Of a stretch of 15,492 nt of DNA, positions 1 to 613 are shown piece after piece. The position numbers were made by a program, and so were the translations under genes. Where the stretch lies: NCBI GenBank assembly GCA_003144275.1, contig NJBF01000056.1, positions 1 through 15,492 of the forward strand, given 5' to 3'. Under the pieces are notes generated by a model that saw only the letters and a list, made by a program, of their open reading frames with translations, was not told where the DNA came from and ran no database searches. This stretch comes from Candidatus Heimdallarchaeota archaeon B3_Heim. Its GTDB lineage: Archaea; Asgardarchaeota; Heimdallarchaeia; Hodarchaeales; Hodarchaeaceae. The first letter of the stretch is position 1; each line of letters opens with the position of its first letter.

Positions 1-262
1 AGTCACGGAGTGCTTCTTGTGGGACACATTTCGAGACCTCATACATCCAGGGAAAATCAGTGTGTTTCAAGCGGTTTAATTCTTTATGTTGTCTCATGGC
101 ATTGGTATAACGAGCCGCACCTGTTTGGGTTTGGTAACGCGATTTCCGCGCAGCTAATCCCCAGTTCCAGGCAAATCGTGATATGCCTGCACATTTGGTC
201 AGTAGCGTCCGTTCTTTGTTATTTACAAATAATTCGTACTTGTATCCTCGTGTCAGGAGCAT
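1..262 (-). CDS. tnpB: TnpB RNA-guided endonuclease (IS200/IS605/IS607 OrfB), N-terminal 87 aa; runs off the window's 5' edge
   Basis: Manual translation from ATG at 262: MLLTRGYKYELFVNNKERTLLTKCAGISRFAWNWGLAARKSRYQTQTGAARYTNAMRQHKELNRLKHTDFPWMYEVSKCVPQEALRD. The start (YKYEL..N..ERTLL...AG..RFAWNWGL) and the W.YEVSKC.PQEALRD motif are characteristic of TnpB N-termini. Absent from the ORF track because there is no stop in the window. GC is 108/240 (45%) over 1-240, visibly above the AT-rich flanks. Confidence 0.93.
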   Translation of the reverse strand, partial: MLLTRGYKYELFVNNKERTLLTKCAGISRFAWNWGLAARKSRYQTQTGAARYTNAMRQHKELNRLKHTDFPWMYEVSKCVPQEALRD

Positions 263-276
263 CCCTGACCATCCTT

Positions 277-316
277 CCTAGTACCAACTAGTTCCAGCTA
301 GCATCACATAGCAATA
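277..316. repeat. Four imperfect 10-bp tandem repeats directly upstream of tnpB
   Basis: CCTAGTACCA / ACTAGTTCCA / GCTAGCATCA / CATAGCAATA; CTAG at 278, 288 and 298. Confidence 0.7.
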
Positions 317-340
317 CGGATTGAGTAGGAGCTTTTCTGC

Positions 341-347
341 TTATAAA
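341..347 (-). promoter_or_regulatory. Candidate TATA box for tnpB
   Basis: Minus strand TTTATAA about 80 nt upstream of the tnpB ATG; motif match only. Confidence 0.3.
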
Positions 348-554
348 CCTATTAAACCCTTTGATCCACATCAAATTTGCTTGTATCCCGTTATTCTAGT
401 ATCAAGAGGTTAACTAGTTCATCACTAGAACCATAATTGCATGAGATCGGTTCAATCATCCGTTATTTTTATGGCTTAATATCTATCCTCTTTTCTTCCC
501 TTTTGCTTCAGTAACTAGCTAGCTGTTTCTCTCTTCCCCTTGAAACCTTCTTTT

Positions 555-590
555 CCTATTTGGCCATAAATGTCCCTATTTGCCCATAAA
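555..590 (+). repeat. 16-bp direct repeat, 20-bp period, putative operator
   Basis: CCTATTTGGCCATAAA (555-570) and CCTATTTGCCCATAAA (575-590), 15/16 identical, about 25 bp upstream of a TATA-like box. Confidence 0.65.
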
Positions 591-613
591 ATAATAGATA
601 ATTGGCATCCCTT

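Follow-up and report, generated by a model that had tools for sequence, protein, structure and literature searches.

Positions 1–611 of the window, the 15,492-nt stretch of DNA analysed here, very probably make up the left-hand 611 bp of a copy of a ~1.65-kb non-autonomous element of the IS607 family in a Hodarchaeota-type archaeon, with a leader, a tnpB gene and a guide-RNA scaffold. The element is of a known kind, a solo-TnpB IS607-type insertion sequence, and one more copy truncated by the assembly is of little significance in itself. What is added here is an empty insertion site, relatives with a serine tnpA in the same genus and in metagenomes, figures for selection on tnpB, and a series of negative results for the leader. 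Read in the sense of tnpB, the element starts with a GG-core left end after a host A-G, followed by ~60 bp with phased repeats, ~270 bp of leader up to a putative TATA-box promoter, tnpB itself (426 aa), and a ~175-nt scaffold that shares the final ~55 codons with the gene and terminates in ...CAGAAC-GG, from which it follows that the guide would be read from host DNA just beyond the right end. The features that lie in the window are these:

2–262 (minus strand): 5' part of tnpB, codons 1–87, with the HTH_OrfB_IS605 domain, from Pfam and the paralogue alignment; the remainder lies past the contig end.
263–339 (minus strand): putative 5' untranslated leader, from the TATA-like box to the ATG, ending in conserved AGGATGGTCAGGG-ATG.
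340–347 (minus strand): TATA-box-like TTTATAAG, the best-conserved leader block.
348–551 (minus strand): middle leader, with conserved blocks, among them ATCTCATGC at 440–448, and a purine-rich part whose length varies.
552–590 (minus strand): subterminal phased repeats AAATAGGGACA / TTTATGGCCA / AAATAGGAAAA, with a period of about 10 nt, 20–60 nt from the left end.
609–611 (minus strand): left end, GGG in the tnpB sense, where the homology stops; the outer GG (610–611) is the presumed crossover core.
612: host base, the A of the A-GGG motif adjoining the left end.

The coding part of the window copy is an ATG-started frame on the minus strand that runs from 262 to 2, comprises 87 codons and is open at the window edge. 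Its 87 residues match the Pfam family HTH_OrfB_IS605 (PF12323) with an E-value of 3.8e-14 (52.4 bits, cut-off 21), placing this TnpB domain at the N-terminus of the fragment. The match supports the TnpB N-terminus that had been proposed from the letters of this stretch (the sequence-only reading), and the motifs RFAWNWGL and WMYEVSKCVPQEALRD are present in the frame as quoted there. The frame thus stands, but its description as a hidden gene has to be amended: the window comprises bases 1–15492 of contig C59, one of 103 contigs in a 3.95-Mb assembly that is 94% complete, and since window base 1 is contig base 1, the gene is cut by the contig end. Indeed, the break in tnpB coincides exactly with that end and decay is not visible. 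The fragment has no stop in its 87 codons and is 78–90% identical to residues 1–87 of six intact paralogues. The tnpB of the window is truncated by an assembly break inside a repeat: the repeat interrupted the assembly, and the copy stops where the contig does. When the adjacent sequence was sought, no other contig of the genome overlapped window 1–262 at >88% identity, so the missing part of this copy is not assignable. As the window copy stops at codon 87, what is said below of the RuvC triad, of the zinc finger and of the guide RNA was seen in paralogues.

Window 1–611 recurs on other contigs at 77–88% nucleotide identity. Six copies are complete (on C82, C96, C61, C38, C63 and C48), and each encodes a TnpB of 426–427 aa with three TnpB Pfam domains, the six paralogues being 77–90% identical in amino acid sequence. 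Contig ends interrupt two more copies (C61:3-959 and C25:24303-23803), and left ends are found at the ends of C100 and C1. Fifteen left ends were detected in the genome's contigs by a profile search with the upstream region, and ~18 right ends by a search with the right-end 18-mer; the count for the genome, which had been left to be made, is about 15–20 copies of the element, including at least 9 copies of tnpB plus gene-less mini-elements. The full copies measure 1632–1654 bp and the six gene-less minis 432–475 bp, and a 106-nt left-end piece lies on C4. Four subfamilies of minis can be told apart by their deletion joints, all of which resume at GTCGCCGAGAG, and the minis keep the ends, a promoter-like block and the guide-RNA scaffold. 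On C96, a full copy (25293-23643) is nested at an A-GGG site inside a mini-element (25525-23420; positions 218-2323 of locus L003), and the uninterrupted paralogous mini at C82:8638-9094 provides a second "empty site" for this nested insertion. Every copy has a different right flank, and hence the guides differ. The genome contains 19 matches to the TnpB zinc ribbon (PF07282), which means that other TnpB families are present too. In short, the element is a tnpB-only, non-autonomous, IS607-type insertion sequence that is multi-copy in an Asgard archaeon. The sister genome G013 carries far more minis than the window genome, with about 20–25 right-end matches spread over many contigs, and their insertion sites, and hence guides, also differ between copies.

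The Asgard host that had been thought probable is borne out by the nearest loci, which are 75–88% identical in protein and belong to MAGs whose titles name Heimdallarchaeota, Hodarchaeota or Promethearchaeota. L011, one of these loci, shares its right flank with the C82 copy and is therefore orthologous to it. Of 41 related genomes, 8 contain the family, and all 8 belong to the genus of the window.

Both ends of the element are sharply defined. Homology among copies starts abruptly at GGG(T/A)TG (window 611), and the right boundary reads ...CAGAACGG, in its full form ...GGGTAAGTCTTTCAGAACGG, about 60 nt past the stop codon. An A precedes the G-run in about 26 of 29 left ends, giving an A-GGG flank, and the right end of the element reads ACGG. 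For the C38 paralogue, the boundary is defined by an empty site in sister genome G013, ...CCAAG-GG-AATTTT..., the occupied junctions being ...CTAAG-GG-TTGTTAAC... and ...CAGAAC-GG-AATTAT...; the comparison shows exchange at the GG without target duplication. The full copy nested in the C96 mini also landed at A-GGG. The recombination features seen here are those of the IS607 type, namely a GG dinucleotide, no target-site duplication and no terminal inverted repeats, and for published IS607 elements the same core is described, together with a (G)GG target (PMC6188088). Short phased subterminal repeats of the IS607 type, which share a GACA core and a ~10-nt period, are also present at the element ends, and in most copies the motif CAAATAGGACA occurs about 50 nt from the left end and again, in inverted form, 19 nt from the right end. 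The repeats, whose layout agrees with that of the IS1535/IS607 ends in PMC6188088, are candidate sites to which a serine transposase would bind.

The left end is separated from the ATG by a leader of ~330 nt (window 263–611) that is non-coding. Its best-conserved block, the box that reads GGTTTATAAG in nearly all copies and in relatives at 58–62% protein identity, stands about 75 nt before the ATG and has the appearance of an archaeal TATA box, with a promoter and start site presumably attached to it; in the minis, the guide-RNA scaffold begins about 31–50 nt downstream of this box. A ATCTCATG block is likewise conserved in the leader. Three other identities for the leader were tried and rejected. 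No frame of >=25 codons is conserved among seven copies, which rules out a small protein gene. A decayed tnpA was rejected on the grounds that a profile built from 23 IS607 TnpA proteins scored ~0 bits in all six frames of 22 leader copies and that tblastn was negative. Finally, a conserved fold, be it a structured RNA or an IStron-like group I intron, is contradicted by RNAalifold, which gave a consensus energy of 0 for each of four segments whichever strand was folded, and by Rfam, where no intron or other family was found at E<=1. These results also uphold the earlier statement that positions 263–660 contain no Y1 or serine-recombinase ORF, the signature being absent, the TnpA profile at ~0 bits and the short frames unconserved.

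What is conserved in the leader are its blocks only. Compared pair by pair, its divergence falls below the synonymous divergence of tnpB in some cases and exceeds it in others, and there are two subtypes, that of C63/C48 and that of the rest. We read the leader as end and promoter sequence acting at the DNA level, a putative role that covers all but about 200 nt of it. The blocks are kept in relatives at 58–62% protein identity, and four metagenome loci in that range (L162, L163, L172 and L173) carry the same leader, from which it follows that the tnpA-less form is old. The 263–339 segment holds a 10-bp insertion that, in the alignments, is present only in the window copy. This insertion, CTGGAACTAG in the tnpB sense, overlaps CTAG repeats at window 277–316 and is absent from the other full copies and from relatives; being copy-specific, the CTAG repeats are unlikely to be conserved transposase-binding sites. 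In L162, the sequence upstream of the left end (about 2081–2125) resembles the 3' part of a tRNA gene (GGGGTCATGAGTTCGAATCTCATCGGGCCCGC), which suggests an insertion next to a tRNA.

The RuvC D, E and D residues and a CxxC...CxxC zinc finger, both singled out earlier for inspection, are conserved in all six complete paralogues, in the motifs LDKG/LDTG, TEDL/LEDL and DRDQNAA and in CSxC...CPLC, respectively, and the intact paralogues match both PF01385 and PF07282. Among solved structures, the TnpB of ISDra2 matches the protein over its full length with catalytic and zinc-finger motifs aligned. ISDra2 is a Y1-transposase element with a TTGAT TAM. The TnpB-like protein L79 of mimivirus (a PDB chain), which we take to be a Fanzor2, matches only the RuvC part (E 1.2e-10), and a special tie of this family to Fanzor2, hinted at in the sequence-only reading, gained no support. 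The dN/dS ratio among paralogues is 0.15–0.26, and tnpB is under purifying selection. Synonymous divergence is 0.10–0.25 in the last 56 codons vs. 0.22–0.59 elsewhere in the gene, as would be expected if an RNA is encoded at the 3' end of tnpB.

The right end and the omegaRNA had also been named as things to look for, and candidates for both could be located in paralogues and minis. Full copies, minis and relatives alike show strong conservation over the ~175 nt that lead up to the right end, and the consensus fold of this region has an energy of -30.6 kcal/mol with 5 pairs at which two-sided changes keep the pairing. At the 3' end of tnpB there is a weak match to RAGATH-18, its 25.5 bits lying below the Rfam gathering score of 44.9; the guides published for IS607 TnpBs are RNAs derived from RAGATH-18 (PMC11061315). 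We consider the conserved right-end region to be the putative guide-RNA (omega/reRNA) scaffold, the 5' limit of which is likely GTCGCCGAGAG.

As for the transposase with which this TnpB clade is associated, linkage to an IS607-type serine tnpA was seen in genome loci, in the genus and in a metagenome. In 23 of the 80 closest genome loci, all 23 bacterial and with 44–53% protein identity, an ORF of ~190 aa overlaps the tnpB start, and the five of these ORFs that were scanned with Pfam have a Resolvase domain at residues ~50–190, which is the IS607 TnpA architecture. A rough HUH-motif screen upstream of the 80 closest loci flagged four candidate ORFs of atypical size (155–375 aa). In the same genus, G007 has a broken serine tnpA immediately followed by a gene for a TnpB that shares 62% identity with the window family, and in a tree of 90 proteins on which the gene neighbourhood was read, this TnpB is sister to the window family with 100% SH-aLRT. 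The two G007 copies, L100 (G007:C14, 1838-3493) and L101 (G007:C59, 3-1600), both lie at contig ends and have an open TnpB of 416 aa; the tnpA is frameshifted in one and interrupted by an in-frame TGA in the other. In the metagenome locus L190 (59% amino acid identity) the serine tnpA is split between two frames, and a left end A|GGGTTGACAAC, the same as that of the window element, lies ~60 nt before the tnpA start. The IS607-type assignment, previously made from the motifs of the fragment, is thus corroborated by the serine tnpA in the nearest transposase-bearing relatives as well as by the GG core, the A-GGG and ACGG ends and the weak RAGATH-18 match. Because no serine-recombinase TnpA is present in the element itself, neither as an ORF nor as a relic in the 330-nt leader, we file it as a non-autonomous IS607 derivative and not as a full member.

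The non-autonomous state, one of two options in the sequence-only reading, extends to the assembly, in which there is no tnpA either. The Y1 family (PF01797) has no match in the 94%-complete assembly, and no IS607 TnpA was found by tblastn or by a six-frame profile search of the genome's contigs. It had been held that an ordinary multi-copy TnpB mobilised by a tnpA elsewhere would make the case routine; the multi-copy, tnpB-only element largely answers to this description, but the tnpA "elsewhere" was not found in the assembly. The single Resolvase-family gene of the genome is a Hin-like invertase beside a reverse transcriptase. On a short contig, locus L009 (G000:C2, 98-1908) holds a 416-aa RT-like ORF next to a 183-aa Hin-type serine invertase; judged from RT motifs read by eye, the locus might represent a retron or some different RT-based system. 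Within the genus, the serine tnpA that adjoins this TnpB clade is broken, and the intact serine tnpA genes (G012, G016) adjoin a different, larger TnpB-like protein that is ~28% identical. These loci, L090 (G012:C120, 1-2052) and L091 (G016:C133, 887-2937), to which L092 and L094 can be added, have an IS607-type serine tnpA of 187 aa, intact in G012 and G016, and in L090 and L091 it is followed by a TnpB-like protein of at least 470–500 aa that runs off the locus, the ~28% identity applying to the RuvC part. In such loci these Asgard genomes carry a second IS607 lineage, distinct from that of the window.

The sister genomes, ~94% identical in the flanks concerned, differ in whether they carry the C38 insertion, and so the lineage was still mobile after the sister species split. 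In Hodarchaeota-type genomes its clade is accompanied by a broken serine tnpA or by none. Among viral contigs (IMG/VR), the closest relative is 45–46% identical and none is closer than 46%. A search of metagenomes for an autonomous parent of the exact family gave loci at 58–62% as the closest, four with the same leader and one with a frameshifted serine tnpA.

Several other explanations of these observations deserve consideration. The window copy could be a truly truncated, dead tnpB fragment instead of an intact gene interrupted by an assembly break; only 87 codons of it are visible, after all, and partial copies of the family do exist, such as the 106-nt piece on C4. We consider a relic quite unlikely, as the break is exactly the contig end, other contig ends also fall within copies (the 3' parts on C61 and C25, the left ends on C100 and C1), the stop-free codons are close to those of intact paralogues, and the leader and left end of this copy are complete. 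Domestication of the TnpB had been the second option of the sequence-only reading; it would mean a host role, RNA-guided regulation for instance, and an end to mobility, and the lack of a transposase and the purifying selection on tnpB would suit it. It is nevertheless barely credible in view of the many tnpB copies and gene-less minis, all with conserved ends, the different right (guide) flank of each copy, the patchy presence confined to one genus and the polymorphic insertion, and we have dropped it. The catalytic triad is intact, unlike that of inactivated domesticated forms, and this, along with the multi-copy state, the differing flanks and the patchy distribution, speaks against a domesticated, inactivated TnpB.

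The non-autonomous IS607 derivative that we favour must also be weighed against other transposases. An ordinary tnpB-only element of the IS1341 type, belonging to the Y1-transposase group IS200/IS605, would have the same layout of tnpB alone, and the best solved-structure match, ISDra2 TnpB, comes from a Y1 element. Yet traits of IS200/IS605 were looked for and not seen: the genome has no match to PF01797, the leader has no consensus fold, and the left end is flanked by A-GGG, each junction showing a GG core, instead of by a conserved motif of the TTAC/TTGAT type. Serine recombinases were moreover found at 23 loci, the HUH-motif screen having flagged the four candidate ORFs of atypical size, and we hold a Y1 origin to be very improbable. 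It is also conceivable, if unlikely, that a tnpA-less IS607 lineage with a conserved ~330-nt leader has diversified to about 60% protein identity and spread as full and mini copies while something other than a canonical IS607 TnpA moves it, be it an enzyme so far unrecognised, a transposase encoded on a plasmid or virus outside the bin, or a mechanism to which the leader contributes. Such a mode of movement would account for an assembly with neither a Y1 nor an IS607-type tnpA, for the frameshifts and stops in the tnpA of the nearest relatives in the genus and on a metagenome contig, for an insertion that is polymorphic between sisters, and for leader blocks conserved down to 58–62% protein identity. 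However, junctions with a GG core and no duplication, A-GGG as the target and phased subterminal repeats at either end would all be expected of a serine transposase, the MAG is incomplete and repeats are under-assembled in it, and the search of viral contigs gave nothing closer than 46% identity. Mobilisation of solo TnpB elements in trans is reported to be common, and loss of the transposase frequent (PMC10691335).

For the tnpB-only IS607 derivative, the anatomy, the copy number, the boundaries, the purifying selection and the polymorphic insertion are direct observations, and by analogy with known systems a cycle can be proposed around them. A serine-recombinase TnpA supplied in trans would excise the element and insert it at (A)GGG sites, with exchange over the GG. 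TnpB with its guide RNA would then cut the empty donor site, recognised by the TAM A-GGG plus the guide-matching flank, and repair from the sister chromosome copy would restore the element, the occupied site being spared by the ACGG at its right end. Since the minis keep ends, promoter and scaffold, they would depend on TnpB made by full copies.

Beyond the single copy in the window, Asgard archaea of the Hodarchaeota type host an IS607-type TnpB family with intact catalytic residues, a readable scaffold and a likely A-GGG TAM, and its members are potential compact editors. The family and its relatives also form a natural series, from an autonomous relative with a decaying serine tnpA, to a tnpA-less element with its own putative promoter, to minis in which the promoter is fused to the scaffold. 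That no mobilising transposase was found though an insertion is polymorphic makes a puzzle of the family.

The closest parallels are the published IS607 TnpB systems. IStron TnpB combines a TGGG target and TAM with a UCGG scaffold end and discriminates at position -3 (bioRxiv 10.1101/2023.11.20.567912), while ISFba1-type systems use G-rich TAMs, including GAGGG, and RAGATH-18-derived guide RNAs (PMC11061315). Like these, the element has a TnpB of about 390–430 aa with RuvC D-E-D and a zinc finger, a scaffold that overlaps the tnpB 3' end and ends in CGG, a G-rich motif adjoining the left end (here A-GGG; TGGG, GAGGG and AGGAG in the published cases), a GG core at both junctions with no target duplication, and occupied and empty sites that differ at position -3 (C vs. 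G). Unlike ISFba1 and the Clostridium botulinum IStron, it has no tnpA, in the place of which stands the 330-nt leader with its putative TATA box. It further differs from these systems in its lack of a group I intron (Rfam), its Asgard host and its RAGATH-18 match of 25.5 bits, below 44.9.

With IS607, IS1535 and ISC1926 (PMC6188088) the element shares GG at the termini and in the target, the (G)GG preference, the lack of terminal inverted repeats and of a duplication, and helically phased subterminal motifs 20–60 bp from the left end, with a shared motif inverted at the right end; it departs from them in the absence of the defining tnpA, and TnpA binding to its repeats is putative. ISDra2 TnpB (PDB 8BF8/8EXA/8H1J) resembles its protein along the full length (E 8.9e-49), most positions being different. 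Lastly, solo-TnpB (IS1341-type) and PATE-like mini elements (PMC10691335) likewise have tnpB as their only gene, are multi-copy and retain their ends, and the gene-less PATE-like minis also keep ends and guide-RNA scaffold. The present family is set apart from them by ends of the IS607 (serine) type, not the Y1 type, and by minis that keep the promoter-like block fused directly to the scaffold.
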